Source: an uncultured bacterium
GTDB lineage: Bacteria; Patescibacteriota; Minisyncoccia; Phycocordibacterales; GWA1-40-21
Length of the DNA: 64,000 nt
Assembly: GCA_963716205.1 (NCBI GenBank)
Contig: OY970290.1
Span: 452,911-516,910 of the forward strand
Direction: 5' to 3'
Of this stretch, positions 2,931 through 49,100 are shown piece after piece. The notes under the pieces were generated by a model. It saw only the letters and a list, made by a program, of their open reading frames with translations. It did not search any database and was not told where the DNA came from. Both the position numbers and the translations under genes were made by a program. Each line of letters starts with the position of its first letter. Position 1 is the stretch's first letter.

Positions 2931-4649
2931 TTATTTCAAATCCGTGGCGCTCGTATCCGGCACGATCGGTCTGACTTTCCAGAATTTTTGGTGAAGCGTG
3001 AGTATGGTTTCCTCAAGCTCTCGGCTTTTCAATAATTTGAGAATGACAACAAGAGCAATGATGCCGATAATTCCCGAGCAAAAACCCTGCATAAAAATAC
3101 CGGCAACTTTGTTGATATTGAAAATATTGTCAAACAAATTCAAACACAGATAGGAAACAAACCCCATGATGACCGATGCGGAAAAAGACTGAAACAGCGT
3201 CTTGAGGAGTGGAGACGAAAAGCCCGAATGCTCTTTTGCAAACCAAATCCACAAAATGATGCAGTTGATGATCTGCGCCAGAGAAAAACCAAGCGCCAGC
3301 ATCAGTATTTCCGTTCCGGGAATATCATCAACACGGAAAAGATGCTCGATGAAAAATCTGAAAATATTGGTGTTCTCAAAAATTTTCCAGAAAAGAAAGG
3401 AAAGTCCAATGGATAAGACTCCGGTGATCAAGCTGGCATATAAAGATTTTTTCGTATCGCCTTTTGCATAATATCCCCGGATAAAAATAAGCACGAGCGC
3501 CTGCGCAAGAATGGAAAAAGAGAATACAGCAAGAGCAGCGGCGGTCAACTTTGTGCCGTCCCAGCCGAATTTCCCCGCGCCATAAATAACTCTGACAATC
3601 TGGGCGCGAAGGACGATGAAAACGACACTGATTGGAATTGACCAAAAAATCGTATGCCGAAGCGCAGCGGAAATATGCGAAAGAAATTGTTCCTTTTGGT
3701 TTGTCGTAATGAATTTTGAAAGCGTTGGAAATGCGGCGAGCGAATACGAAACGCCGATGATGGAAAGCGGAACGCCTTGCAGATTATTGGAAAAATTAAA
3801 AACGGAAATGGAGCCGACGGTCATCAAAGATGCCATACCGACAAGCGCGAGCGTGGTGATTTGTGTCATACCAAGTGTAATGGTGCGCGGAATCGAAATC
3901 AAAAAAATATTTTTGATCAGTGGCCAGTCAAAATGAAACGGCCACGCTTTGAAAAGCCCGCTTTTGAAAACAAACGGTAATTGAATCGCCAAATGCATGA
4001 TTGTGCCAAGAATGACGCCGTATGCAAGACCGTAAATGCCGAAAATCGGATAGAAAAATATTGCACCGAAAATAATGCCGAGATTATAGACGAGTGGACT
4101 CAAAGCATAGACAAGAAAACGTTTTCCCACCTGTGTAATGCTTGCCAAAAAATTTGAAATGCCGAGAAAGATCGGCGAGAGAAGCAAAATGCGCGCCATG
4201 TGGATCAATGTCGCTTTATCGGCAATGCCGGGAAAAATCTTTGGAGCGAGAAACGGCATCAGGAAAAATCCAACAATACTCGCGCCGACAATCAAAAGCG
4301 AAAAGAAAGAAAAAATCGTATTGATGAAATATTTTGTCTCTTCGGTGGATTTTTCCAATCGATAGGTGATGAACGGAACGAGAACTGAAATGGAAACAAT
4401 AGAGCCGACTGTGGCAAAAATAAAATCAGGAATTTCAAAAGCGGAATAATAAATATCGAGCGTATGGCCGATGCCGAACGAAGTCGCAAGAACACGGTCT
4501 CTCAAAAGAGCCAGTATCTGCGATAAAAAAGCAAAAAAAGCGAGCAGATATGCGGCTTCATGCAGTCCTTCTATTTTCTTGTAGAACATGCCGAAAAAAG
4601 TTTTGACTTTGACCATGGTATCGTAATGTGTTTCTAGTATAGCGTACAT
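2931..4649 (-). CDS. murJ: lipid II flippase MurJ (MOP superfamily, multi-TM)
   Basis: N-terminal MurJ signature LLRDRVLATSFGIGHTLDIYYSAFEIPDFIF and about 14 hydrophobic segments. The true start may be the internal Met (MFYKKIEG, near 4589). Confidence 0.75.
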   Translation of the reverse strand: MYAILETHYDTMVKVKTFFGMFYKKIEGLHEAAYLLAFFAFLSQILALLRDRVLATSFGIGHTLDIYYSAFEIPDFIFATVGSIVSISVLVPFITYRLEKSTEETKYFINTIFSFFSLLIVGASIVGFFLMPFLAPKIFPGIADKATLIHMARILLLSPIFLGISNFLASITQVGKRFLVYALSPLVYNLGIIFGAIFFYPIFGIYGLAYGVILGTIMHLAIQLPFVFKSGLFKAWPFHFDWPLIKNIFLISIPRTITLGMTQITTLALVGMASLMTVGSISVFNFSNNLQGVPLSIIGVSYSLAAFPTLSKFITTNQKEQFLSHISAALRHTIFWSIPISVVFIVLRAQIVRVIYGAGKFGWDGTKLTAAALAVFSFSILAQALVLIFIRGYYAKGDTKKSLYASLITGVLSIGLSFLFWKIFENTNIFRFFIEHLFRVDDIPGTEILMLALGFSLAQIINCIILWIWFAKEHSGFSSPLLKTLFQSFSASVIMGFVSYLCLNLFDNIFNINKVAGIFMQGFCSGIIGIIALVVILKLLKSRELEETILTLHQKFWKVRPIVPDTSATDLK

Positions 4650-25794: not shown

Positions 25795-26402
25795 TGGGCA
25801 ATTATAGCATACATTATGAATGACAGAGCGGCTATTATTTCCGCAGTTTTTCGCACGAGACCGATTCGAGGAAATGTTTTTGTGACCGTAAAGACATGTT
25901 CCTCTGCAGACATCGCTGCCATCGCGTCTTCCGCAAAAATTTGGTTGTACCCATATTCGTAGGCGAACCGCGCTGTGCTTTCCACGCCGATATTTGTTGC
26001 TATTCCGCAGAGAATAATTGTCGTTATGCCTCGTCTTCTTAATTCCAAGTCAAGTTCTGTGCCATAAAACGCGCCCCATTGGTGTTTGGTGATGACAAAA
26101 TCATTTTCCTTCGGTCCGAGCTCTGGCACAATATCCGCCCAATCAGGCGCCGGCGTTTGGCTCCATCGCGGCATATCAGTTATCGGATTCAATCCATCTT
26201 TTCCATCCGGGGATGGTGTAACTCGAACGAGAAAAATCTGCATTCCGTTTGCACGCATTTTTTCGGCAATGGTAATTGTGTTTTTCAAAACCGCATCTGA
26301 TGCATATGGTGCGACTTCGCGTCCGACGATTCCTTTTTGCAAATCAATAACCACCAAAGCCGTTTTACTTTTATCAATGATAATTTGTTTTTGTTCGTTC
26401 AT
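25773..26402 (-). CDS. isochorismatase-family cysteine hydrolase
   Basis: TALVVIDLQ start and a catalytic Cys in ILCGIATNIGVESTAR. Confidence 0.75.
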   Translation of the reverse strand: MNEQKQIIIDKSKTALVVIDLQKGIVGREVAPYASDAVLKNTITIAEKMRANGMQIFLVRVTPSPDGKDGLNPITDMPRWSQTPAPDWADIVPELGPKENDFVITKHQWGAFYGTELDLELRRRGITTIILCGIATNIGVESTARFAYEYGYNQIFAEDAMAAMSAEEHVFTVTKTFPRIGLVRKTAEIIAALSFIMYAIIAQWQTLSR

Positions 26403-26442
26403 ACTGAAATTATACCAAAATAAAAATTAAAAAACATGTGCC

Positions 26443-26531
26443 TGCGGAGAGGGCGGGATTCGAACCCGCGAGACCCTTGCGAGCCTGCCAGTTTTCGAAA
26501 CTGGTACATTCAACCACTCTGCCACCTCTCC
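26443..26531 (-). tRNA. tRNA-Ser (anticodon CGA)
   Basis: The reverse complement has acceptor GGAGAGG/CCTCTCC, anticodon stem-loop CCAGT-TTCGAAA-ACTGG, a long variable arm and T-arm GCGGG-TTCGAAT-CCCGC. Confidence 0.75.
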
Positions 26532-26606
26532 GTGTTTTTGCAACCCGAAAAACAGTAACATCTTTTTGTCTTTTTTACAAAAAATGGTATAGTACTTTTT
26601 GTGTTT

Positions 26607-26678
26607 GGCCCTATCGTCTAACGGTTAGGACACGGCCTTTTCAAGGCTGTAATCGGGGTTCGATTCCCCGTAGGGTCA
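26607..26678 (+). tRNA. tRNA-Glu (anticodon TTC)
   Basis: GGCCCTA..GTCT-AACGGTTA-GGAC..CGGCC-TTTTCAA-GGCTG..CGGGG-TTCGATT-CCCCG-TAGGGTC-A. Confidence 0.75.
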
Positions 26679-26736
26679 CAACTAGTATTTAAATACTGGT
26701 ATTAAAGTATATAAATACTATATAAGTCGTAAAATT

Positions 26737-28188
26737 ATGAAGTTAGAGAAAACAACAATCAGAAATTATAGAAGTATAGATGAGCTATCATTTGATATTA
26801 ACCAACTCAATGATCAGACCTTTACGTATGGCTTAATCGGAGTAAACGAAGCTGGAAAATCTACAATATTAAAGGGATTAGCATTAAAAGATGGTTTAAA
26901 AAACGAAAAGGGATCAGCTCTACCGTTACTTAAAGATTTCAAAGATAAGTCAAAACCAATTGAAATCGAGTATTTATACTTACTAAACAAAGATGAAATA
27001 ATTTTTTGTAGAGAGCATATAGTTACACAGGCACCAGAAGTAACAGAGGTTGGTACTATTGATTTTAGTTCCATTAAGCTTATAACTTATTTCAATATTG
27101 ATGCGCCAAGTACCGTTAAATATAGGATTGATATTAGTTCTATACCTGAAACAAACGAACAAAAGTCTTTAATTGAAGATAAATTAAAAAAGATTATTTT
27201 CGAGAAATCACATAAATCAATTTTTTGGACAGCAGAAGATCGTTATTTAATCTCACAACCAATAACATTGTCACAATTTGCAGATAATCCGGATGTAATA
27301 TCAATACCTTTGAAAAACTGTTTTGCTCTTGCTGGAATAGTTGGGATAACTGCAATTAAAGAAAAAATAGCTTCAATCTCTGAATCAACTGAGCGAGAAC
27401 AATTACAGACTGATCTAGGTGAAAAAGTAAGTGCTCACATAAATACAGCTTGGCCTAAACACCCAATTACAATAACTTTTGACATATCTGATGGTCTGAT
27501 CAATTTTCATGTCCATGACTCAAATTCAAAAGGTAAAGCAAAAACAGCTGACCAACGAAGTGATGGTTTTAGACAATTTGTATCTTTTCTTTTAACTATT
27601 GCAGCACAAAGTAAAAACGATGAGCTTTCTAATACAATTTTATTGCTTGATGAACCAGAAACACACCTGCATCCACAAGCTCAAGAAGATTTGTTAAAAC
27701 AACTTATCAAAATAACTGAAAATAAAAAAAATAATATTGTATTTTTTGCTACTCACTCTAATTACATGATTGATAAAAATGATTTGAGTAGAAATTATAA
27801 AATATTTAAAAAATCTAATAAAAAATCGGAAAAAGAAAAGACTGAAAAAGAATTGTTTGATAAAAAAGTTTCAACTTATGCCAGTGTAACTTATGAGGTA
27901 TTTGATATTGCGACTACCGATTACCATAATGAACTTTACTCAAAGGTACACGAATTATATCAAGATGCTGATTCTACTGACAAAGAACGCTCAGGTATTC
28001 TAAATTTCGATACTAATTTCTTGGAAAAAGAAAAGAAGCTTAAAAAGGACAAACCTTGGAAAAATACTCCTAACAAGGCAACTCTTCCTACTTATATTAG
28101 AAATTGTATTCATCATTCAGATAATGGGGATAAATATAAAGATGAAAATCTAAGGGAATCTATTGAGTTATTACTTTCTTATTTATAA
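26737..28188 (+). CDS. SMC/OLD-type ABC ATPase with C-terminal HEPN-like domain (PrrC/RloC-like architecture)
   Basis: ATPase motifs: IRNYRSI start, Walker A GVNEAGKST, signature-like SDGFRQFVSF, Walker B/D-loop LLLDEPETHLHP and H-loop FFATHSNYM. The C-terminal region of about 120 aa carries YIRNCIHHSD (R-x4-H, HEPN-like). The gene is AT-rich relative to its neighbours. Confidence 0.6.
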   Translation: MKLEKTTIRNYRSIDELSFDINQLNDQTFTYGLIGVNEAGKSTILKGLALKDGLKNEKGSALPLLKDFKDKSKPIEIEYLYLLNKDEIIFCREHIVTQAPEVTEVGTIDFSSIKLITYFNIDAPSTVKYRIDISSIPETNEQKSLIEDKLKKIIFEKSHKSIFWTAEDRYLISQPITLSQFADNPDVISIPLKNCFALAGIVGITAIKEKIASISESTEREQLQTDLGEKVSAHINTAWPKHPITITFDISDGLINFHVHDSNSKGKAKTADQRSDGFRQFVSFLLTIAAQSKNDELSNTILLLDEPETHLHPQAQEDLLKQLIKITENKKNNIVFFATHSNYMIDKNDLSRNYKIFKKSNKKSEKEKTEKELFDKKVSTYASVTYEVFDIATTDYHNELYSKVHELYQDADSTDKERSGILNFDTNFLEKEKKLKKDKPWKNTPNKATLPTYIRNCIHHSDNGDKYKDENLRESIELLLSYL

Positions 28189-28248
28189 ATTTGGTTATTA
28201 GATAACAACTTTACTTTAGGTTCACTGATGTAGGATTTTTCTCTAGAA

Positions 28249-29160
28249 TTACTTACCTCTTTTTTCATCTTCCTGTTGTTGTAAATAAGCATCTACGACT
28301 GCTTCTATCTCCTCTTCAGAAGGAACATCTTCATCTGTTTTATCAGTAAATTTTATACCCTCATCTTTAAACGTATTTTTTACAACTTCTAAGGCAAATT
28401 CTGCTTGCTCTTTAGTAATTGGATCGGAGGAGTGAACTGCTTTATTTCTGATACCAATTAAGTCTTTAATTAGAGAGATGTATTTTTTATCTGAAAAAAT
28501 ATTATTTTTATCCGCAAAATCTAACAGTTGTCTCATCCCCATGTACTTAGTTGTTAAATCTTTTTCTTCCAATAGCTTTTCTTTTAGATACTCTTCAAGT
28601 GTTTTTTGAGCTTCTATTACTGTTTCAGCATAAAATTTGTTATCAAATAATTTAAGTGCTCTCTCTAAATATGAATCTTTTAATTTTTCTATAGTTTCGG
28701 TTGCCTCTCTTACCGTTCTTCTTGTTAGCCTGATTGCGTTAAAGAAACTAGATATTGCTAATATTGAGCCGGCAATTCCATCAAAAATAATAACCGCATG
28801 TTCGTGTTGTTTCGCAAAGCCATAAAATGGTTCTGATCCAATAATCCAGAAAAAGATCACTAAAATTGGAAACAGCATCGCAAACGAATAAAAAAAATTT
28901 GCTAAAGGAATGATCCATCTAAATAAGAAGAAATTTTGATATTTACCAAAATTGAATCGTAAATAATCTAAAGCATAGAGATAAACAGATATGGTTAATA
29001 AAATAATAAAAAAAATCATTATTCCAAATAATGGATATATTCTATTACCAATTATCAAGCCAATTTTTGACAAATCATCTTTGAAGGTGCTGAAGGCTAA
29101 AAAAGCAGCAAGAAGTCCTACAACAAAAAATGCTTTATCTTGTATCTGTTTATCATTCAT
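28249..29160 (-). CDS. multi-TM membrane protein with C-terminal HEPN domain
   Basis: Four or five N-terminal hydrophobic helices, then a soluble C-terminal domain with the canonical HEPN motif LIGIRNKAVHSSDP (R-x4-H). AT-rich. Confidence 0.6.
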   Translation of the reverse strand: MNDKQIQDKAFFVVGLLAAFLAFSTFKDDLSKIGLIIGNRIYPLFGIMIFFIILLTISVYLYALDYLRFNFGKYQNFFLFRWIIPLANFFYSFAMLFPILVIFFWIIGSEPFYGFAKQHEHAVIIFDGIAGSILAISSFFNAIRLTRRTVREATETIEKLKDSYLERALKLFDNKFYAETVIEAQKTLEEYLKEKLLEEKDLTTKYMGMRQLLDFADKNNIFSDKKYISLIKDLIGIRNKAVHSSDPITKEQAEFALEVVKNTFKDEGIKFTDKTDEDVPSEEEIEAVVDAYLQQQEDEKRGK

Positions 29161-29223
29161 AAATTATGCTAATAAAATCTACTTATAAGATTTTATTAAA
29201 TATATCACGGACGAAAAATATAG

Positions 29224-29439
29224 CTAATTTCTTGATACTAGGTCCACTACAGATACCCCCAACACCTCCGCAATCCTTATCAGTGTCCCAATCGTTGGAT
29301 TGATCGGTCTATCTCTCCTCTCCAACTTCACAATCGTGTTATAGGAGATGCCTGATAATCGAGAAAGGTCTTCTTGGAACAGTCCTTTCTCCTTCCTATA
29401 CCTCCGTATTGCCTCACCAATGTAATTTTGATTGTCCAT
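29224..29439 (-). CDS. XRE-family HTH transcriptional regulator (Cro/cI-like)
   Basis: 71 aa. HTH_3 region IRRYRKEKGLFQEDLSRLSGISYNTIVKLERRDRPINPTIGTLIRIAEVLGVSV. Confidence 0.85.
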   Translation of the reverse strand: MDNQNYIGEAIRRYRKEKGLFQEDLSRLSGISYNTIVKLERRDRPINPTIGTLIRIAEVLGVSVVDLVSRN

Positions 29440-29541
29440 GGGATGAATTGTAGTTAGTTGATTAAAATATGGTAAGACGGTGAAACGTAACCAAATGGAT
29501 ACGTTTTGTGGATAACTTTATTAGCTTTAAGAACAAATACT

Positions 29542-29781
29542 ATGATTAGCCTTGAAAAACTGAGAGAAATTGAGCCGGCATTAAAAGATATGCCTGATAA
29601 AGAGTTGGACCATATCCGGGATCTCCTCTATGCCCACGCCAAGTTGGCCCTCGAATGCTTTTTTGAAGACAAAACTGGTGCCAAACGCGAAGTACATATT
29701 CCTGATTTTAGTTTTGATTCGAGAGAACGAGCTGCACTGAAGCGCTGTGAGGAGATTATGGCCCTGAAAAAGAAAGGCTAG
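29542..29781 (+). CDS. hypothetical small protein divergent from the XRE regulator
   Basis: ORF MISLEKLREIEPALKDMPDKELDHIRDLLY... The divergent arrangement with an HTH repressor resembles a phage-type genetic switch. Confidence 0.4.
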   Translation: MISLEKLREIEPALKDMPDKELDHIRDLLYAHAKLALECFFEDKTGAKREVHIPDFSFDSRERAALKRCEEIMALKKKG

Positions 29782-29987
29782 ATCCCTTAGCTATTTTTTC
29801 TTCCCGCATGAAATTGTTGAAATCGCGGAGATGTAATATAATAGCGTTCCAATCTCTAATAACGAGCGTCACCAAACGGGATTTCGTATGCAAAAATTGC
29901 CGGTATACCTTGTAGCTGAGCCGTATTAAAGGGGTTTCAAATCTCATTTTTTCAAAAATAAATTATTTAATTCTCTTAGTGATTAAA

Positions 29988-30013
29988 GGGTACCCTACGG
30001 GGATTTGGAACCC
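29988..30013 (-). pseudogene. tRNA 3'-end-like fragment (resembles tRNA-Glu T-arm and acceptor, inverted)
   Basis: On the minus strand, GGGTTCCAAATCCCCGTAGGGTACC compares with the tRNA-Glu 3' end GGGGTTCGATTCCCCGTAGGGTCA. It is flanked by the short inverted repeat TCTTAGT...ACTAAGA. Confidence 0.4.
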
Positions 30014-30070
30014 TTGGAGAGCACACACTATCTGGAACTCCGTCTCTGTGGAACTAAGAAAGCGGAAAAA

Positions 30071-30655
30071 CTATATCTTTTCGATTGGTACAAATCTCCA
30101 CTCTGCATTTTGATACGCTTCTGATTCAAGAAGTTTACTCAATTCATAGACACGGAACTTAAAATCTTTGTTGTTTTTGGCAGGATTCTCTACAAATCCA
30201 GCTTTATCAAAACAGATGAATTCATCATCTTTTGTTCTGCCGACGATAAAGGAATGCCCGAGTTCCGTATTAAATATTTGTCCTATATAGACTTTCCCAT
30301 ATTTGCAAGATAGTTTTGCCAATTCATATAATTCCGTTTTATTTTTCGTTGGAGAAAATTCTTTTGTTGATATTTGAGACACTTTTTCTTGAAAATTAAA
30401 ATTTGAAGTATTGTTTAATTTAGGATCAGATATAAATTCGTCATGAGAAATTAGATTTGCAAGATAAAGGACTGTCTTATGGCAATTTATTTTACGCAAA
30501 ATTTCTGCTATTTCTTCATTTGCTCGATTATCTTCCCATTCAAGCATTCCATGGATAAGCAGAGCAAGTTTTTCTGGAAGAATGATACTCTTTCCGTTTG
30601 AAATTAGATTCCAATTTCCATTCTCATCTTTTCTTATATGTTGGACAAGATTCAT
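30071..30655 (-). CDS. hypothetical protein
   Basis: 194-aa AT-rich ORF. It has a Cys...His pair (LSCKYGKVY...ELGHSFIVG) but no confident family assignment. Confidence 0.4.
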   Translation of the reverse strand: MNLVQHIRKDENGNWNLISNGKSIILPEKLALLIHGMLEWEDNRANEEIAEILRKINCHKTVLYLANLISHDEFISDPKLNNTSNFNFQEKVSQISTKEFSPTKNKTELYELAKLSCKYGKVYIGQIFNTELGHSFIVGRTKDDEFICFDKAGFVENPAKNNKDFKFRVYELSKLLESEAYQNAEWRFVPIEKI

Positions 30656-30915
30656 ATATTTTATTATATCAGAAGATTTTGATGTTTAATTCCTACTAGG
30701 GTTATCGTCTGCGATACTTTTCTACCCCTTGGCAGAAATATGTGGAGGATTAGAATTGAGATCGAGGCGAAATTCAGGCAATAAGTTCTAGATCGTCCTC
30801 TTGTTTCTCAAAATTATGTCGAAAGTTTTTGATATACAAAAAAATCTGGTTCCAATTTTCTAAAAAGAGGGTCACCAACGTTGTTGTCATGCGTAAAAAT
30901 TCGAGCGTCACAGAT

Positions 30916-31728
30916 TTATTTTATGAGCACTATTCTATTTTTGTTTTTCTTAATAAACCCGTCATTTTTCAAACTTTCCAAAACTTTTTCAACTCTTTTT
31001 GAATTCTCTTTTATCTCATTCAAAATTTCTTTTCTTGAAATTGAATTCTTTTTCAAAAGCAATCGCAAAATTTTTCCGCGTATCTGCCTATCCGAACCTT
31101 CAAATTTTGATTGCTTGGCATAATGCAAACTTCTCCTGTTTGGATTTATTACTTGAGATTTCAAGTATGTCCCATAATCCATCATTGCCGAATACCATAT
31201 CCGCGGATTTTTCCTGTCCAAATTTTTCTCGATGAGTTTCAAAATTTCTTTATCATGAATTTTCTTTTTTGTTTTATTAAAAAAGAAATGGATGAAAACC
31301 CGGCGGATATTCGTTTCAATAAAAATTACCGGTAGGTTAAAACTGTGCGTACAGATCGCTCCGGCGGTATTCGGACCGATACCAGGCAGATCGACAAGAA
31401 TGGATGGATCTCTCGGCAATTTGCCCTTAAACTCACCTGTCACTCGTTCTGCCGTACGTTTGAGATACAAGGCCCGGCGATTGTATCCGAGCCCGGACCA
31501 AACTTTTAACACTTTTACCGTGGAAACTTGCGCAAGACTTTTGAAATTAGGAAAAATTTTTACAAATTCGTTGTATTTTGCCATCACCCTCCCCACCTGC
31601 GTCTGCTGAAGCATGATTTCGGAAACGAGAATTTTATAGGAATCGTGCGTCTTACGCCACGGCAAGTCGTGTCTGCCGTGTTTTTTATAATAGTCGAGAA
31701 TTATTTTTTTAAATTCTGTTTTTTGCAC
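30916..31728 (-). CDS. HhH-GPD superfamily DNA glycosylase (EndoIII/MutY-like, lacking Fe-S cysteines)
   Basis: LPWRKTHDSYKILVSEIMLQQTQV and the helix-hairpin-helix LPGIGPNTAGAI. Glu replaces the catalytic Asp in IETNIRRV. There is no C-x6-C-x2-C-x5-C cluster. A basic C-terminal extension of about 80 aa follows. Confidence 0.65.
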   Translation of the reverse strand: MQKTEFKKIILDYYKKHGRHDLPWRKTHDSYKILVSEIMLQQTQVGRVMAKYNEFVKIFPNFKSLAQVSTVKVLKVWSGLGYNRRALYLKRTAERVTGEFKGKLPRDPSILVDLPGIGPNTAGAICTHSFNLPVIFIETNIRRVFIHFFFNKTKKKIHDKEILKLIEKNLDRKNPRIWYSAMMDYGTYLKSQVINPNRRSLHYAKQSKFEGSDRQIRGKILRLLLKKNSISRKEILNEIKENSKRVEKVLESLKNDGFIKKNKNRIVLIK

Positions 31729-31733
31729 AGAAT

Positions 31734-32177
31734 TTATTTCTCTAAACCGTAAATGTCTTTCAAAATCTCTCCGCCGTGGGTGGTCGGATCGACTTTCGGA
31801 TACACTTTGAGAATTTTACCGTCCTTGCCTATCAAATATGAAATTCTTTTGGTAAATATTCCTCCGAGCGCGCCGTATTTTTTTATTACTTCTTTTTTCG
31901 GATCGGAAAGTAAGATAAAAGGTAATTTATATTTTTCCTCGAATTTTTTATGGCTCTTCACAGTGTCATGACTCACCCCAAACACTTTCACACCAGCCCG
32001 TTCAAAATCTTTATATGCATCGCGGATGCCGCATGCTTCTGCCGTGCACCCCGGCGTATCATCCTTCGGATAAAAATAAATCAAAACGTAGCTTCCCGCA
32101 TGATATGAGAGCGAATGTTCTTTGCCATTCTGATCAAGAAGTTTGAAATCCGGTGCTTTTGTTCCAATTTCAAGCAT
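31734..32177 (-). CDS. bcp: peroxiredoxin Bcp/PrxQ (thiol peroxidase)
   Basis: APDFKLLDQNGK and the active site FYPKDDTPGCTAEACGIRD. Confidence 0.9.
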   Translation of the reverse strand: MLEIGTKAPDFKLLDQNGKEHSLSYHAGSYVLIYFYPKDDTPGCTAEACGIRDAYKDFERAGVKVFGVSHDTVKSHKKFEEKYKLPFILLSDPKKEVIKKYGALGGIFTKRISYLIGKDGKILKVYPKVDPTTHGGEILKDIYGLEK

Positions 32178-40160: not shown

Positions 40161-43100
40161 TTATTGCCCTTCTGATGAGGTTGCCGAGGAATCAGTCGTT
40201 GTTGCTTGAGATGAATCATCCGGAGTCGTAGTTGCTGTTGTTATTTGGATATCAGAGGTGGAACTTGCGGTGCTTGTTGCCGTTCCATCAGAAGTCGAAG
40301 TGGCTGTCGAAACAATATCAGTTGTCGTTGCTTGAGATGAATCATCCGGAGTCGTAGTTGCTGTTTCGGAATCAGGCGTCGAAGTTGCAGTGCTTGTTGC
40401 GATTTCCGTTCCTGAATTATCCGGCGCACTCGAGCTTGCTGCCTCTGCCGGAGACGTCGCTGCTGGAAGTGTGTAGTCCGAAGGATAACCAAACGTTTTT
40501 GCATTATTGACTGCAAGAGCAATCCAACTGAAGGTTGTGTCATCAATAGCGGGTTTGTTAAGCATGATCGTAAATCCTGCCGTTGATTTTTTCATAATGA
40601 CATATTGAATATTGTTGTTGAAGATATCTCCGACGGTAGCGGTATCAGCGGCGGGATTGCTCGAAGTATCAAACGTAATGTTTGCACTTACGATTGGATC
40701 TGTAAGATACGGATTGGTGAATGTCACATCAACTGATTGCTGGCCCTTGGCAATAACCGCGAAGCCAGCGGTGTCATTATTGAAGTATGGCCTACCAAAG
40801 AATATTGTGTCTGATTCAAGAGTAATGGCGTCATTCAAAGAACTTATATTATCCACTGTCAAACCTTGCGTTGTTATGCTTGGTGCAATAATTTCAATTC
40901 CGGCGGCAAGGCGATCAACCAAAAGTTCAGATGTCGTATCCGTCGCTTCAGGACCGGTTCCTTGATTTGCCAGGAATTTCGCCAGCACCTGTCTTCCTAT
41001 TGTTTCAGTATTTCCAACATCTTCGATGCCGGCAAATTCACTCAAACTTTCTCCGCTGTAATATCCTTGTTCAACAAAAACCATCACTTGGCTCTGCCCC
41101 GAATTTGGACTCCAGTTGCCGAGTGCTTTGCCAATAACCTCACCCGCTTTTGTGGCTTTCATTGCTTTTCCGGGATCATCAGAAGTCGTCAAATAATCTC
41201 CTGGTTGTATCGGATCCGAACTTGATGAAACATTGACCATAATACGACCATTAAGTGCGATTGGCATTATTTTATCTTCCCCACTCATTGCATTATATCC
41301 AGCGGAAGTAAATTGACCATAGTTGTCGGAAACAACACCGATCACATTTGATGCATATGTCGTGGTAGCTTGAACAAGTTCGGTAATTTCCTGCGGTGAA
41401 TCTGTTGAAACATTTCCTTCCGCATCAGTTCCATATTGTTCAACAGTTGTTGTGCCAAGCACCATAACATCACCATAATCCGTCGACTGTTCAACTGGAT
41501 ACATTTCAGCATAATCAGAAGTTGGCGCACCGCTACAAGTGACAAGTTGATACGCAGTTCCTGATACCGGAGCTTGTGATCCCGTAAGAGTAGCTACGCA
41601 AACACCTTTGATTCTTGCGGCTGTTGACGTACCAAGTGAAACCGCGACTCCTACTGATGTAGTACCAACGCCACCAGCAATAATTGAAACTGTCGTTGTA
41701 CCGGAACTCGAATTTTTTACGCCAATATTAATCGCTGTAACACCGGTGCCACCATTTGCAGTCGTTCCAATATTGATCGTTTGGTTATTATTACCACTTG
41801 CACCAGTACCTATGTTAATAATTTGACCTCCGGTAGATGAGCCAAGTGTAATAGCACCTGTCCCTGTAGTGGAACCGATGACGATTGTGCCATTTGTATT
41901 TGGAGTCATCGTAATTCCACCTGTGCCAGTACCACCATAAATTGTAGTATTTCCTGTTAATGACGTACTGCCAATTTGTATAGCGCCGCTTGTAACATTG
42001 CTGAACAAAAGGTTTGTGGGAGACGTACCGCCATATATGGTTACTACTCCGGTTGCCGCTACTCCGCCAAGAGTCAATGTTCCTGTACCGGTTACAGCAA
42101 AAGTTGAAGCGCCATTACCCGCATTAATATTAACTTTGGTTGCACCCGTAATGTTACCGATGGTAACAGTTCCAGCTATTGCTCCTGTTCCAATATTGAT
42201 GATATTTCCGGTTGCACCTTGAGTACCAATATTTACAGTATTGATTCCTCCGATTCCAACTCCGAGGTTCAAAGTTTCCGCACCTGTCGATGAACCGACA
42301 GTGATAGCACCTGTCTGCCCAGTTCCGCCTATTGTATATGTACCTGATGTTAAAGCCGCGCCATCAGTTATCGAACCTGTTGTTATACCAGTACCTATCG
42401 TTATGGTTGAACCAGCGGCACCTTGTAATAAATAATTTCCTGTCCCCACTGTTTCTGTTATTCCTGTTGCACCGACATTATTTCCAATAGCAATGACATT
42501 ACCGCCAGTACTACCATTGGCAATATTTACTGCCGCATTATTAGAACCGGTATTTATATTTGCTGCAAAATTTGAAGAAACATTCAAATTGACTGCTGCA
42601 CCCGTAGAAGTCAAACCTGCAACAAAAGTTCCCAAATTATTCCACGTTTTAGCTCCATTCACCGATTGAGTTGTTGTAAGGTCAACAAAGTTTTGGGAAC
42701 TTGAACCTGTTCCGCCGTTGGTAATTGGCAAAATGCCCGCGGTAGAAGGCAAGTTGGTTAAGAGTGACCAACTTGGTGTTCCCGCAGCAGTGTTCATTAA
42801 AACCATACCTGTTGTGACACCGGCAGCCAATCTCGCGGGAGCAGGTGTTGAATTTTCATAAATCATATCTCCCACAGTAGTCATAGGATTTGTAAGTTTC
42901 CCATTAAACGTCGTCCAATCAGCGCTTGCCAGACATCCGCTTACAGATCCCGATGCCTGCGGACAGTTAATCGTGAGTGATGATGAAGTTGTTGAAATAT
43001 TAAATGATGTACCGGATGTTCCGACTGCTGTTGTGAATGGTCCCGTATATCCTGCTGCCACTGATGCTGTCAGTGTTCCTGAATTTGTCACCGGTGAATT

Positions 43101-46100
43101 CGTTACAGTATATCCTGTCGGTAGAGAAAGACCGACGGAGGTGACATACGCCAGTGATGTCGAGGCCGAGGATAACAAAAATTGAGAAGTTGATGTGGAA
43201 ATTACATTTCCATTTGGGTCAACTGCCAAAAATGCATTTGAAAGTTTTGAGATGTTCAAATTTTGAGTAGTGGAAGTCCCGATGACTGAAAGTGCAGTTA
43301 CCGGAGTTGTTGTGCCGATGCCGACATTGCCATTCGGTAATATATTGAATCCGACTGTAGAGGTAGAATTAAAAGAAACAAATGGAGACGTCAGTGAGCC
43401 ATTTAACGCAGTATAAGAAATACTTGATGTAGCCAATAAGAAATCAGCTGGATTTGAAGAAAATACATTTCGCATTGCGGAAACGCTTTGAGTTCGTAAA
43501 ACGGTAACGCTATCAAGCTGAGAGATAGGAGTTTGAATCGGAACGGGTGCAGTCCAGGAAGCAAAATTATTGTATGAATCGCTGTAGTGAATAAATGACG
43601 TATTGCCGTATTCATCAAGATAAATTCTCCAATCATTGGCGCTGACCTGTACAAGTGCCGGGGCTTCATAGTTATTCGCTCCCCATCCTGCCCAGTTGCC
43701 GCTTTCCGCAGTGACAAACGGTCCTGTCGGTGAAGAAGAAGTGGCATATTCAATATATTTCGGAGCGGTTTCCTCTTTGTACCAGAGATAATATGTGCTA
43801 CCAATCTTGACCATAAATGGGTCAATCTTGTTTGCTCCAATAACATAAACTGGATTCGACCATGTGGTCATGGCGGCATTTGTCGGGTGCATTTCGTAAA
43901 CACTGAAGGTATTATCGGAACCGTCCGGAGCAATTGAAACATAGGCATGAACAGTTCCGTCCGTATCGACAAAAAGTGACGGTGCCCATGTCCAATAGAC
44001 TGTGGTTGTCGCTGCCGTCGTGGAAGGATTTGTCACATAGCTCCAATTCCTCAGATCAGATGAAGAAGCAAGACCCCACCATTGATTTGAACCAAAGCCA
44101 GAATATGATGGAAAGTTATTATAACTCATCCAATAGACATTATTGTAATAAATAATTGACGGATCTCGGAAACTTCCGGATGGTGGGATATACGGCGGAT
44201 TGGGTTCAAAATCAAAGAAATTAATACCATCAGCACTTGATTCAATCTCCATAGTTTGTGCTGAGAAATTATGCCCGACAAGGATATATACTCCTTGACC
44301 CGCAACAGCAGGATTACCGACCGATGCATCACCCAGCGTGTTCGTGTTTCCACCAAAATATGCAATAGTTGTAGTAGCTGAAGTCAATCCCGCAACAGAA
44401 AATTCAGAGTTTGGAGTACTTGTCCCGACACCAACATTGCCATTGGTAAGAACTGTAAGGAGAGGCGATGTTGTTGAATAAATATTGAGTAGTGGTTGCG
44501 TTTGAGCATATGTTGAAGTCGCTTCAATAGCCAGTTCTGCAGACGGAGTTGTCGACCCGATTCCAATATAACCATTTGAAAAAACTTTAAAATATGAACT
44601 TCCATTTATTCCGTAAATTTCAAGAGGATTTCCTAAAGATGAACTTGCTTGAATATCAACGGCATCATCAGGCGTAGTTGTTCCGATTCCAACACTTCCA
44701 TTTGAAAGAATTATCATTCTTGTATCTGAAGCCAATGTTCCTCCGGTAAAGAATTTCAGAGCGGCTTGTGAATTTGTACTCGTAGCTGTGCCAATATCTA
44801 ATGAATTATCAGAAGCATACACATAAGCATCGTCTGATGTTGCTATGGTAAATGTCTGATCAGCGTTATATCCGTTATTAATACCCAAATCTACATAATT
44901 TGAATTATCATTTCCATTGTTTGCTGTTGCAATATAATCCGCAGAAGATGTCGGAGAGTTTGAAGAATTTTCCAATACCATTTCAACAGATGCGGACGAA
45001 CTGCCTATCACAGCAAACGGAACTACATTACCGTCTCCTAAAACATTCCAGTTTGTTGTCGTGCCAATGGCAATTGATGAACTTGCGGGAAATTCATATA
45101 GAACTGAATTAGTCAAAGTTCCGCTTGATGTTGCATACGAAATATATCCGGTCGTAAAAGGTGATGTTGTGCCAAGTCCCCCACTGCTTGTTCCGCCTGA
45201 TATTCCGAGCGATGATGTCGAAACATATGCAACACCTCCGATTGCTGTTGATGATGCTACGAGAACATATCCATTCGTTCCCGTTGCAATGCTACCAAGT
45301 CCCGATCCTGAAGACCAATATGCCAAATCTCCTGATGTTCCGGAAAGAGCATTTTGTTTCCCATTAAACGTCGTCCAATCAGCGCTTGCCAGACATCCGC
45401 TTACAGATCCCGATGCCTGCGGACAGTTAATCGTGAGTGATGATGAAGTTGTTGAAATATTAAATGATGTACCGGATGTTCCGACTGCTGTTGTGAATGG
45501 TCCCGTATATCCTGCTGCCACTGATGCTGTCAGTGTTCCTGAATTTTTCACCGGTGAATTCGTTACAGTATATCCTGTCGGTAGAGAAAGACCGACGGAG
45601 GTGACATACGCCAGTGATGTCGAGGCCGAGGATAACAAAAATTGAGAAGTTGATGTGGAAATTACATTTCCATTTGGGTCAACTGCCAAAAATGCATTTG
45701 AAAGATTGGAAATGTTTAATCCTTTCGTGGTTGAAGTACCGATGACGGAGAGTGCTGTTGCTGGAGTGGTGGTGCCAATACCAACTGCATATGATGCTAA
45801 TAATTCTCCTCCATAACCAGCGTTTCCGAGTGAGTATCCTATACCAATACCATTATTAAATGTGAAATTGCCCCAGCCATCTGAAGATATTGTTCCTTGT
45901 TGTGTATTGTCAGTTCTTGTTGAACTTATCAGTGTTGTTGAAGCATTCGCTGAAAAATTAAGAAGTCCGTTAGAATAAACTTGATTACCTGGAGCTCCAA
46001 TACCAACATTTCCATTGAAGAATGCGACTGTTCCAGTTGGTGCAGTAACAGAACCAACGGAAAGTGTGGAAACATTTGAAAGCGATTTATTATTGAGATT

Positions 46101-49100
46101 CACTCCGCCAGTCGCACCGGAATACGGAACATAGAGTGATGAGCTGGCAAACGGAATGTATGCAAGCGATGTCGAGGCCGAGAGCGGAAGGTAGGTGGAG
46201 GCGGCTGTTGCCGTCGTCAGGTAATTGGTGATGGTTGAGGTTGAGACGTAGTTGGCGGCGGCCGATGTCGTTGAGAGATATCCAAGCAGCGTGTTGGCAA
46301 ATGATGAAGTTGAGACGTAGTTGGTCAGTGATGAGGTGGTGGCCGTGATGTAATTGGAAGGATTGGAGTTGAGGTAATACAAACTTGAGGATGCAAACGG
46401 AATGTATGCAAGCGATGTCGAGGCCGAGAGCGGAAGGTAGGTGGAGGCGGCTGTTGCCGTCGTCAGGTAATTGGTGATGGTTGAGGTTGAGACGTAGTTG
46501 GCGGCGGCCGATGTCGTTGAGAGATATCCAAGCAGCGTGTTGGCAAATGATGAAGTTGAGACGTAGTTGGTCAGTGATGAGGTGGTGGCCGTGATGTAAT
46601 TGGAAGGATTGGAGTTGAGGTAATACAAACTTGAGGATGCAAACGGAATGTATGCAAGCGATGTCGAGGCCGAGAGCGGAAGGTAGGTGGAGGCGGCTGT
46701 TGCCGTCGTCAGGTAATTGGTGATGGTTGAGGTTGAGACGTAGTTGGCGGCGGCCGATGTCGTTGAGAGATATCCAAGCAGCGTGTTGGCAAATGATGAA
46801 GTTGAGACGTAGTTGGTCAGTGATGAGGTGGTGGCCGTGATGTAATTGGAAGGATTGGAGTTGAGGTAATACAAACTTGAGGATGCAAACGGAATGTATG
46901 CAAGCGATGTCGAGGCCGAGAGCGGAAGGTAGGTGGAGGCGGCTGTTGCCGTCGTCAGGTAATTGGTGATGGTTGAGGTTGAGACGTAGTTGGCGGCGGC
47001 CGATGTCGTTGAGAGATATCCAAGCAGCGTGTTGGCAAATGATGAAGTTGAGACGTAGTTGGTCAGTGATGAGGTGGTGGCCGTGATGTAATTGGAAGGA
47101 TTGGAGTTGAGGTAATACAAACTTGAGGATGCAAACGGAATGTATGCAAGCGATGTCGAGGCCGAGAGCGGAAGGTAGGTGGAGGCGGCTGTTGCCGTCG
47201 TCAGGTAATTGGTGATGGTTGAGGTTGAGACGTAGTTGGCGGCGGCCGATGTCGTTGAGAGATATCCAAGCAGCGTGTTGGCAAATGATGAAGTTGAGAC
47301 GTAGTTGGTCAGTGATGAGGTGGTGGCCGTGATGTAATTGGAAGGATTGGAGTTGAGGTAATACAAACTTGAGGATGCAAACGGAATGTATGCAAGCGAT
47401 GTCGAGGCCGAGAGCGGAAGGTAGGTGGAGGCGGCTGTTGCCGTCGTCAGGTAATTGGTGATGGTTGAGGTTGAGACGTAGTTGGCGGCGGCCGATGTCG
47501 TTGAGAGATATCCAAGCAGCGTGTTGGCAAATGATGAAGTTGAGACGTAGTTGGTCAGTGATGAGGTGGTGGCCGTGATGTAATTGGAAGGATTGGAGTT
47601 GAGGTAATACAAACTTGAGGATGCAAACGGAATGTATGCAAGCGATGTCGAGGCCGAGAGCGGAAGGTAGGTGGAGGCGGCTGTTGCCGTCGTCAGGTAA
47701 TTGGTGATGGTTGAGGTTGAGACGTAGTTGGCGGCGGCCGATGTCGTTGAGAGATATCCAAGCAGCGTGTTGGCAAATGATGAAGTTGAGACGTAGTTGG
47801 TCAGTGATGAGGTGGTGGCCGTGATGTAATTGGAAGGATTGGAGTTGAGGTAATACAAACTTGAGGATGCAAACGGAATGTATGCAAGCGATGTCGAGGC
47901 CGAGAGCGGAAGGTAGGTGGAGGCGGCTGTTGCCGTCGTCAGGTAATTGGTGATGGTTGAGGTTGAGACGTAGTTGGCGGCGGCCGATGTCGTTGAGAGA
48001 TATCCAAGCAGCGTGTTGGCAAATGATGAAGTTGAGACGTAGTTGGTCAGTGATGAGGTGGTGGCCGTGATGTAATTGGAAGGATTGGAGTTGAGGTAAT
48101 ACAAACTTGAGGATGCAAACGGAATGTATGCAAGCGATGTCGAGGCCGAGAGCGGAAGGTAGGTGGAGGCGGCTGTTGCCGTCGTCAGGTAATTGGTGAT
48201 GGTTGAGGTTGAGACGTAGTTGGCGGCGGCCGATGTCGTTGAGAGATATCCAAGCAGCGTGTTGGCAAATGATGAAGTTGAGACGTAGTTGGTCAGTGAT
48301 GAGGTGGTGGCCGTGATGTAATTGGAAGGATTGGAGTTGAGGTAATACAAACTTGAGGATGCAAACGGAATGTATGCAAGCGATGTCGAGGCCGAGAGCG
48401 GAAGGTAGGTGGAGGCGGCTGTTGCCGTCGTCAGGTAATTGGTGATGGTTGAGGTTGAGACGTAGTTGGCGGCGGCCGATGTCGTTGAGAGATATCCAAG
48501 CAGCGTGTTGGCAAATGATGAAGTTGAGACGTAGTTGGTCAGTGATGAGGTGGTGGCCGTGATGTAATTGGAAGGATTGGAGTTGAGGTAATACAAACTT
48601 GAGGATGCAAACGGAATGTATGCAAGCGATGTCGAGGCCGAGAGCGGAAGGTAGGTGGAGGCGGCTGTTGCCGTCGTCAGGTAATTGGTGATGGTTGAGG
48701 TTGAGACGTAGTTGGCGGCGGCCGATGTCGTTGAGAGATATCCAAGCAGCGTGTTGGCAAATGATGAAGTTGAGACGTAGTTGGTCAGTGATGAGGTGGT
48801 GGCCGTGATGTAATTGGAAGGATTGGAGTTGAGGTAATACAAACTTGAGGATGCAAACGGAATGTATGCAAGCGATGTCGAGGCCGAGAGCGGAAGGTAG
48901 GTGGAGGCGGCTGTTGCCGTCGTCAGGTAATTGGTGATGGTTGAGGTTGAGACGTAGTTGGCGGCGGCCGATGTCGTTGAGAGATATCCAAGCAGCGTGT
49001 TGGCAAATGATGAAGTTGAGACGTAGTTGGTCAGTGATGAGGTGGTGGCCGTGATGTAATTGGAAGGATTGGAGTTGAGGTAATACAAACTTGAGGATGC

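Follow-up and report, generated by a model that had tools for sequence, protein, structure and literature searches.

Fusions of an ATP-binding cassette (ABC) ATPase to a HEPN domain, mobile or embedded in restriction-modification (R-M) loci, have been known since 2013, and fusions of transmembrane (TM) segments to DUF4145-type HEPN domains were noted at the same time (PMC3710099). The locus described here lies in a 64,000-nucleotide stretch of contig OY970290.1 (assembly GCA_963716205.1, positions 452,911 to 516,910, forward strand; hereafter the window) from a small Patescibacteria (Paceibacteria-like) genome of 681,747 bp. Beside a tRNA-Glu gene of the window is a mosaic, integrase-less and compositionally foreign accessory island of ~4.2 kb. 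It carries two HEPN genes, one for a 483-amino acid ABC ATPase with a C-terminal HEPN-like domain (ATPase::HEPN) and one for a 303-amino acid membrane protein (TM-HEPN). The island is read here as tRNA-Glu hotspot cargo comprising two candidate abortive-infection or toxin modules, each a single gene and independent of the other, a reading to which a probability of roughly 65% is given. Both genes are real, and their role is probably defensive.

The 483-amino acid protein is, by its sequence, an OLD/AAA_15-type ABC ATPase, apparently fused to a diverged HEPN-like domain. It carries the ATPase motifs GVNEAGKST, LLLDEPETHLHP and ATHSNYM, and the sequence IRNCIHH in addition. The Pfam models AAA_15 (E 3e-20) and AAA_21 (E 2e-18) span residues 1-346. 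No variation is seen at the Walker A, signature, Walker B or H-loop residues. Full-length homologs number at least 839 and come from many phyla. PADLOC models match only the ATPase part (Old, E 4e-26; AriA, E 3e-22; GajA, E 5e-17; PtuA, E 5e-15), which also matches the OLD structure PDB 6p74 (E 1e-10). The closest sequence relatives of the ATPase half are the OLD nucleases, along with Gabija GajA, PARIS AriA and Septu/retron PtuA. In OLD nucleases of classes 1 and 2 a Toprim nuclease domain follows the ATPase, but searches of Pfam, PADLOC and NCBIfam returned none for this protein, and the model of its C-terminus is a bundle made up of helices apart from one beta-hairpin. Nor does the island encode an AriB Toprim, GajB helicase or PtuB HNH protein, the neighbours being instead a tRNA gene and the TM-HEPN gene.

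In overall plan the protein resembles PrrC, of the E. coli prr locus and the EcoprrI type Ic R-M operon, in joining an N-terminal ABC-type NTPase to a probable HEPN-type C-terminal domain within ~400-480 residues. PrrC is an anticodon nuclease silenced by the R-M operon around it; a phage anti-restriction factor activates it to cut tRNA-Lys in the anticodon loop. Members of the family are, moreover, inserted in hsdMSR operons, and both PrrC and this family are horizontally mobile and AT-rich. The preliminary description of this DNA had drawn the analogy to PrrC from architecture, and the analogy is strengthened by the closest homologs, which occupy the position between hsdM and hsdS in type I R-M operons. 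Actual membership of the PrrC/RloC family, in contrast, is not supported: the ATPase is of the OLD-like AAA_15/AAA_21 type and not AAA_13. The window protein gives no AAA_13 (PF13166) match at E<=0.1, and weak ones occur in only 3 of 47 diverse members of its family. PrrC is reported to use an Arg/Glu/His triad, whereas the HEPN motif of this family is a contiguous R-x4-H together with a distant invariant His. Furthermore, the family inserts between hsdM and hsdS, and the window copy is without an R-M neighbour. RloC differs in size (~800 residues as against 483), and neither its CXXC zinc hook nor a long Rad50-like coiled-coil insert is present. The APECO1_4465 and ERFG_01251 groups (Anantharaman et al. 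2013, PMC3710099) are alike in having an ABC ATPase with a C-terminal HEPN domain and in their prophage or mobile-island and R-M contexts, and the present family may coincide with one of them. By description only, ERFG_01251 differs in its classical MNT-type HEPN domain, while the domain of the ATPase studied here escapes all Pfam HEPN models.

The second protein, TM-HEPN, is best explained as the product of a lineage-restricted solitary gene, a putative membrane protein with a cytoplasmic classical HEPN RNase domain. It had been described as having four or five TM helices and a canonical C-terminal HEPN domain. Four hydrophobic segments were found (residues 8-28, about 40-66, about 85-108 and 121-141), and the HEPN assignment stands: the domain has the four-helix up-down fold of the superfamily, with R-x4-6-H where helix 3 ends, and its R-x4-H motif, GIRNKAVHSSDP, is intact and invariant. 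The family is tiny, with 14 clusters among 5.8 billion proteins, all named members being from Paceibacteria; a scan of IMG/VR found none on viral contigs. It differs from the minimal HEPN toxins (SO_3166, AF0298, TT1696) and DUF4145-type HEPN proteins in the fusion to a four-TM N-terminal domain, and from HEPN-MNT toxin-antitoxin pairs in that no MNT/nucleotidyltransferase gene adjoins it in the window or in five other contexts. A membrane anchor, a HEPN domain and a defence context are shared with Csx28, the type VI-B CRISPR accessory protein with a divergent HEPN. The closest homolog of TM-HEPN (57% identity; L090, 1013-2579) shares its strand with a gene of the Ymh family (HEPN) and lies 35 nucleotides downstream of it. 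A 303-amino acid open reading frame (ORF) in one relative of the window, L088, was considered as another homolog and rejected as not homologous.

That the two genes are accessory is evident from comparison with related genomes. Syntenic relatives were found by way of TsaD, and three of their contigs (L087, L088 and L089) were compared with the window, which placed the window-specific insert between 26680 and ~30950. The closest relative, L087 (TsaD 86% identical), has the same backbone order as the window: ABC transporter, isochorismatase, tRNA-Ser, tRNA-Glu, variable cargo, glycosylase, bcp, orf108, tsaD and leuS. Nucleotide homology between the two breaks exactly at 26679 and picks up at 30966 (75% identity), continuing through bcp. 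The cargo of L087 is a single, different HEPN gene (3016-3678, + strand) encoding a 220-residue RiboL-PSP-HEPN protein (E 7e-19), and thus sister genomes swap HEPN cargo at one site. In L089, tRNA-Glu abuts tsaD at a distance of 3 nucleotides. In L088 (8133-9693) the tRNA-Ser/tRNA-Glu pair has the opposite orientation to that in the window, and a gene for a large serine recombinase (504 amino acids) overlaps the inverted tRNA-Glu at its own 3' end, an arrangement that suggests serine-recombinase-mediated integration or inversion at tRNA-Glu. Because what follows tRNA-Glu differs among the window and these three relatives, its 3' side is a hotspot of recombination whose cargo changes.

Base composition marks the same region as foreign. 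The island (26680-30915) has a G+C content of 32.2%, more than 5 standard deviations under the other 4.2-kb windows (mean 43.0%, standard deviation 2.1, minimum 39.2). G+C at third codon positions (GC3) is 19% in the ATPase gene, 22% in the TM-HEPN gene and 24% in orf194, a hypothetical gene farther along the island, compared with 40-50% in flanking genes. The drop in G+C asserted in the preliminary description, including its hand count of about one third over the first 120 nucleotides of the ATPase gene (33.3%), was confirmed, and its ORFs, quoted motifs and tRNAs were all located where it had placed them. Insertion at a tRNA 3' end, atypical composition and absence from relatives, the features of tRNA-linked islands, are all found here; synteny and composition together bear out the suggestion of an accessory, foreign island at a tRNA-adjacent hotspot. 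A block comprising an XRE gene and orf79 is host-like and not AT-rich (G+C 43-44%, GC3 45-50%), so the island is a mosaic. In a promoter scan of the region, counts were not above those in shuffled sequence, and terminator-like sites were not found.

The C-terminal region of the ATPase protein (residues ~365-483) matched no model in Pfam, PADLOC or NCBIfam, and a profile search of the domain against PDB sequences returned only a chance match, to ribosomal protein S8. A HEPN-type catalytic domain is nonetheless likely, judging from its predicted structure and its conserved residues. An AlphaFold2 model built from 71 sequences gave a confident four-helix HEPN-like fold (predicted local distance difference test score 88, predicted template modelling score 0.77), with helices at 33-50, 60-71, 89-98 and 108-121 in domain numbering and a beta-hairpin between the second and third. 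R455-N-C-I-H-H460 in the model extends from the end of the third core helix to the start of the loop to the fourth. In HEPN domains the Rx4-6H motif is placed at that end of helix 3, and an insert between helices 2 and 3 is typical (PMC3710099); the R455-x4-H460 motif and the helix 2-3 insert agree with this canonical layout.

Conservation of the domain extends far beyond the window. A profile search of 1.84 billion representative sequences recovered 912 clusters with the C-terminal domain, nearly always at the C-terminus of proteins of 400-530 amino acids. Each of 47 diverse members, down to ~20% identity, has H397, R455 and S475, while conservation of H460 and I458 is at least 90%. All 47 match AAA_15 and AAA_21; none matches any Pfam HEPN model.

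The genomic contexts of the family were surveyed by scanning one genome per species, which gave 80 loci, 36 of them with full-length relatives, from many phyla. Clustering of the neighbouring ORFs revealed one conserved context, type I R-M genes, at 14 of the 36 species loci. The R-M neighbours were confirmed with Pfam as HsdM (N6_Mtase and HsdM_N), HsdS (Methylase_S) and HsdR (ResIII, HSDR_N and EcoEI_R_C). Most often the genes run hsdM, ATPase, hsdS, hsdR, and the gaps that separate the ATPase gene from hsdM and hsdS, of -14 to +10 nucleotides, imply co-translation with these two genes. All five of the closest homologs of the window ATPase (58-72% identity) are linked to R-M genes. At the other loci the neighbours are heterogeneous and enriched in genes of mobility and defence, namely phage integrases, N6_N4 methylases, ResIII, Shedu SduA, reverse transcriptase and GmrSD. 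Distant members occur on a Klebsiella plasmid, between insertion sequence elements and beside a TIR protein, and on a Weissella plasmid, adjoining an integrase; the family is also found on nine IMG/VR viral contigs. Ten of 5426 complete E. coli genomes carry a member directly after an integrase, annotated as 'ATP-dependent nuclease'. In all eight loci tested (L002, L005, L006, L012, L013, L018, L026 and L036), and thus in every host phylum examined, the ATPase gene lies 5-17 G+C percentage points under the rest of the locus. In profile the family is a mobile immunity module of a single gene, one that embeds preferentially in type I R-M operons. The same situation is known for PrrC and, more widely, for ABC-ATPase::HEPN fusions (PMC3710099), and from the literature on embedded defences. 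Within the window, the ATPase gene is an orphan copy of this often R-M-embedded family, moved without R-M genes.

Two individual loci may be mentioned in this connection. On a Leptonemataceae chromosome (L027, 6001-8121, + strand) the homolog is a 706-amino acid ORF inside a type I R-M locus with two hsdS genes, and may be a fusion or an extended variant. In E. coli H8 (L103; NZ_CP010172.1, 2958852-2960300), a 482-amino acid 'ATP-dependent nuclease' with the same C-terminal motif, TFIRNHIHHPEN, is flanked by an integrase and a second recombinase and adjoins rcnR.

Several observations weigh against the reading of two single-gene modules or against the HEPN-like nature of the ATPase C-terminal domain. 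The His pair of the C-terminal domain varies in close homologs of the ATPase protein (HH, HY, DH, NH, RH and HN), H460 being replaced by Tyr or Asn in some of them. A Foldseek search with the model of the domain gave no match in PDB with E <5, and hhalign comparison of its profile with that of TM-HEPN set the motifs in register at a probability of 1.4%, which is not significant and was not used as evidence. No hsdM, hsdS or hsdR gene is present beside the ATPase gene or elsewhere in the 64-kb window, so latency of the PrrC type cannot apply literally to this copy. The TM-HEPN contexts examined number six in total (the window, L082, L084, L085, L090 and L091). Finally, neither an integrase or recombinase ORF nor flanking direct repeats (attL/attR) were found for the island in the ORF list and by Pfam, and the tRNA-derived repeat is only inverted and internal, so that the island has the look of a mosaic in decay.

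The variable canonical His can also be understood if the C-terminal domain is a non-catalytic helical sensor or adaptor, as in MtlR or KNTase-type HEPN-like proteins, and the whole protein an accessory ATPase that modulates or senses type I R-M. The failure of HEPN sequence models to match the domain would fit this, as would the tight translational coupling of the gene to hsdM and hsdS. However, invariant R455, H397 and S475, with H460 kept in at least 90% of members down to ~20% identity, make a pattern typical of a catalytic site. Many members, furthermore, stand alone on plasmids, within prophages or next to integrases, where there is no R-M system to modulate, and a stand-alone gene needs its own effector. 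An accessory role is thus rather unlikely, and a catalytic HEPN-type domain is retained as the likely interpretation.

The adjacency of the two HEPN genes, which are convergent and 60 nucleotides apart, had led to the proposal of an RNA-targeting suicide or defence pair, or a toxin-immunity pair. Such a pair might, for example, have a membrane-tethered heteromeric HEPN active site. HEPN active sites are generally known to assemble across dimers, the two genes are nearly identical in composition (G+C 29.8% each, GC3 19% and 22%), and the closest TM-HEPN homolog, in L090, likewise adjoins a HEPN-family gene, Ymh. The proposal was not borne out by the distribution of the genes. A hidden Markov model of TM-HEPN run over the 80 ATPase-family loci gave no match outside the contig of the window, and no homolog lies within 6 kb of any of these loci; conversely, none of the five other TM-HEPN contexts has an ATPase::HEPN gene. 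These counts (0/80 and 0/5) leave a two-component system unsupported. Clustering of neighbours yields no conserved partner except R-M genes, and the 14 Paceibacteria-only clusters of TM-HEPN contrast with the more than 900 clusters, from many phyla, of the ATPase domain family. Convergent orientation, moreover, means that the genes are not co-transcribed. Equal G+C content was considered as a sign of co-transfer and rejected, low G+C being typical of the ATPase gene relative to every host tested. A functional pair is accordingly very improbable. The evidence says that the two HEPN genes do not form a system; they are better read as independent single-gene modules, and their pairing as a coincidence of a defence-island hotspot.

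A HEPN neighbour stands beside TM-HEPN in two of six contexts (the window and L090), which is anecdotal. A decidedly speculative idea, held at long odds, is a modular 'HEPN docking' in which the membrane protein would heterodimerise with whichever soluble HEPN RNase is adjacent, here ATPase::HEPN and in L090 Ymh-HEPN. Such docking, a mechanism not previously described, would sequester the RNase, thereby conferring immunity, or couple RNA cleavage to the membrane. Two independent modules remain the preferred reading of the island. Its features and their coordinates are collected in Table 1.

Table 1. Features of the island and its borders (window coordinates), with the contexts of TM-HEPN homologs on other contigs
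Feature	Position	Strand	Remarks
tRNA-Ser(CGA)	26444..26531	-	ARAGORN; Rfam 58.7 bits; neighbour of tRNA-Glu in L087, L088 and L089
tRNA-Glu(UUC)	26607..26679	+	ARAGORN; Rfam 61.7 bits; 3' end is left boundary of the variable island
ABC ATPase (OLD/AAA_15-AAA_21 type) with C-terminal HEPN-like domain, 483 amino acids	26737..28188	+	Pfam; G+C 29.8%, GC3 19%
HEPN-like C-terminal domain, residues ~379-483	27871..28185	+	conserved H397, R455, H460, S475
Codons of key residues of that domain		+	H397 27925-27927; R455 28099-28101; H460 28114-28116
TM-HEPN membrane protein, 303 amino acids	28249..29160	-	four N-terminal TM helices (28738-29139); G+C 29.8%, GC3 22%
Classical C-terminal HEPN domain of TM-HEPN	28366-28674	-	R238 28447-28449; H243 28432-28434
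XRE/Cro-cI-type helix-turn-helix (HTH) protein, 71 amino acids	29224..29439	-	HTH_3 E 8e-14; G+C 43.5%, GC3 50%; absent from L087
orf79, 79 amino acids (91 from upstream TTG)	29542..29781	+	called gene on public contig
tRNA-Glu 3'-end-like inverted relic (part of T-arm and 3' acceptor strand)	29992..30013	-	complementarity 18/22
orf194, hypothetical, 194 amino acids	30071..30655	-	third foreign AT-rich gene; G+C 31.6%, GC3 24%; absent from L087-L089
Right flank, bcp (AhpC/TSA) and MutY-like HhH-GPD glycosylase	30916..32177	-	conserved with L087, same gene order; Pfam, NCBIfam
TM-HEPN context L082			between uvrB and uvrA
TM-HEPN context L084			adjoins methyltransferase
TM-HEPN context L085			mobile element, beside large serine recombinase
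TM-HEPN context L090			adjoins Ymh-type HEPN gene
TM-HEPN context L091			among housekeeping genes

The XRE gene, divergent from orf79, had been proposed as a dedicated switch, which was not upheld: it has no conserved partnership with either HEPN gene. HTH genes occur near the ATPase gene at few loci and at varying distances, and no TM-HEPN locus other than the window has one; a role for XRE as a conserved regulator was rejected on these grounds. At one locus only, on a Saccharibacteria contig (L024, 1488-1652, + strand), an XRE-like ORF 37% identical to that of the window lies ~23 nucleotides upstream of an ATPase::HEPN homolog. With XRE upstream of TM-HEPN on the same strand, across a 63-nucleotide gap, the two could be imagined as a type II toxin-antitoxin-like operon of an HTH antitoxin or repressor and a membrane HEPN toxin, the ATPase being an unrelated neighbour. 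HEPN toxins are indeed known among toxin-antitoxin systems (SO_3166), and XRE matches HipB/Y4mF-type antitoxin or control models (TIGR03070, E 9e-13; PADLOC control protein, E 1e-9). These matches, however, reflect generic HTH_3 similarity and fall under family cut-offs. Upstream of TM-HEPN, an HTH gene is absent from all five other loci, at which UvrB, a peptidase, Ymh and proteins without a known family are the neighbours, and the GC3 of XRE (50%, versus 22% for TM-HEPN) points to separate origins. Such an operon is improbable, and TM-HEPN is still best regarded as a solitary gene.

Farther along the island, an inverted fragment resembling the 3' end of tRNA-Glu, claimed earlier at 29988..30013, is present at 29992-30013, where 18 of 22 positions are complementary to the tRNA-Glu 3' end. 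Within the 64 kb the exact 12-mer TCCCCGTAGGGT occurs only in this relic and in tRNA-Glu, and 100 shuffles did not produce it once; its choice was post hoc, and the estimated chance of finding any tRNA-Glu 12-mer on either strand of the 4.3-kb island is ~0.03. Neither ARAGORN nor a permissive Rfam scan of the island recognised the relic as a tRNA or tRNA pseudogene. It marks the point at which composition changes from the host-like XRE block to AT-rich orf194, and is possibly the remnant of an old recombination (att) site or of an earlier integration. The XRE/orf79 block, the relic and orf194 are best explained as remnants or cargo of separate insertion events. Searches with PHROGs, PADLOC, NCBIfam and Pfam returned nothing for orf79, orf63 or orf194. 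The last, previously termed a Cys/His protein, has three scattered Cys and five His residues, among which no metal-binding motif can be recognised. An imperfect direct repeat of ~30 nucleotides (GTTCCAAT...GTCACCAA; 29846-29875 and 30846-30875) brackets the relic and orf194, and the translation of orf63 (29756-29947, - strand) is 40% identical over 35 amino acids to a frame at 30798-30902. The repeat may have arisen by duplication of a target site or of a flank, and orf63 is perhaps no real gene.

The glycosylase at the right border (30916-31728, - strand) matches the MutY N-terminal domain and has a TrmB/Lrs14-like winged HTH at its C-terminus, without a NUDIX domain. Its single Cys (C126) and lack of a 4-Cys Fe-S motif agree with its earlier description as Fe-S-less; its assignment to the island, in contrast, was mistaken, as it belongs with bcp to the conserved flank shared with L087. 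The same protein also matches the PADLOC 'Type II nicking endonuclease' model (E 2e-21). Elsewhere in the window (40161-50498, - strand) a single ORF of 3445 amino acids encodes a secreted or surface-type protein, in which near-perfect tandem repeats abound in Ser, Thr, Ala and Tyr (e.g., ...SSLYYLNSNPSNYITATTSSLTNYVSTSSFANTLLGYLSTTSAAANYV...). These repeats account for the extreme GC skew (+0.45 to +0.51) and the 51% G+C content at 46-50 kb.

How the two modules might act can be outlined by analogy. The ATPase half of ATPase::HEPN would keep the HEPN RNase latent, as in PrrC, the HEPN site being held inactive in ATP-bound oligomers or, in relatives, through complex formation with the type I R-M enzyme. 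Sensing of infection, of phage interference or of an inactivated partner restriction enzyme would then release the RNase, which, as a metal-independent enzyme, would cut tRNA or other RNA, so that translation stops and the infection is aborted. For the orphan copy in the window, regulation would have to be intrinsic to the ATPase domain. Intrinsic regulation is what has been suggested for RloC as well as for ABC-HEPN proteins of prophages (PMC3710099). TM-HEPN, for its part, may serve as a membrane-tethered RNase toxin or exclusion protein. Catalysis is favoured because the R-x4-H motif is intact and invariant; by comparison with Csx28, a pore-type action is also conceivable.

The analysis exposes a large family that crosses phyla. 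Clustered at 50% identity it forms more than 900 groups, and it is present in Patescibacteria, Bacteroidota, Proteobacteria, Chlorobi and spirochaetes as well as on plasmids and in phages; databases label its members merely as "AAA family ATPase" or "ATP-dependent nuclease". Its combination of an OLD-like ABC ATPase with a HEPN-like domain outside the Pfam and PADLOC models makes it a widespread candidate that current defence-finder models miss, and the E. coli members offer a tractable model host for its study. The locus itself provides an example of defence genes in the small genomes of the candidate phyla radiation, in which a tRNA-Glu hotspot exchanges HEPN genes between sister genomes. 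If members of the family do act as PrrC-like "guards" of type I restriction, a second and far more widespread ATPase lineage would come under the PrrC paradigm.

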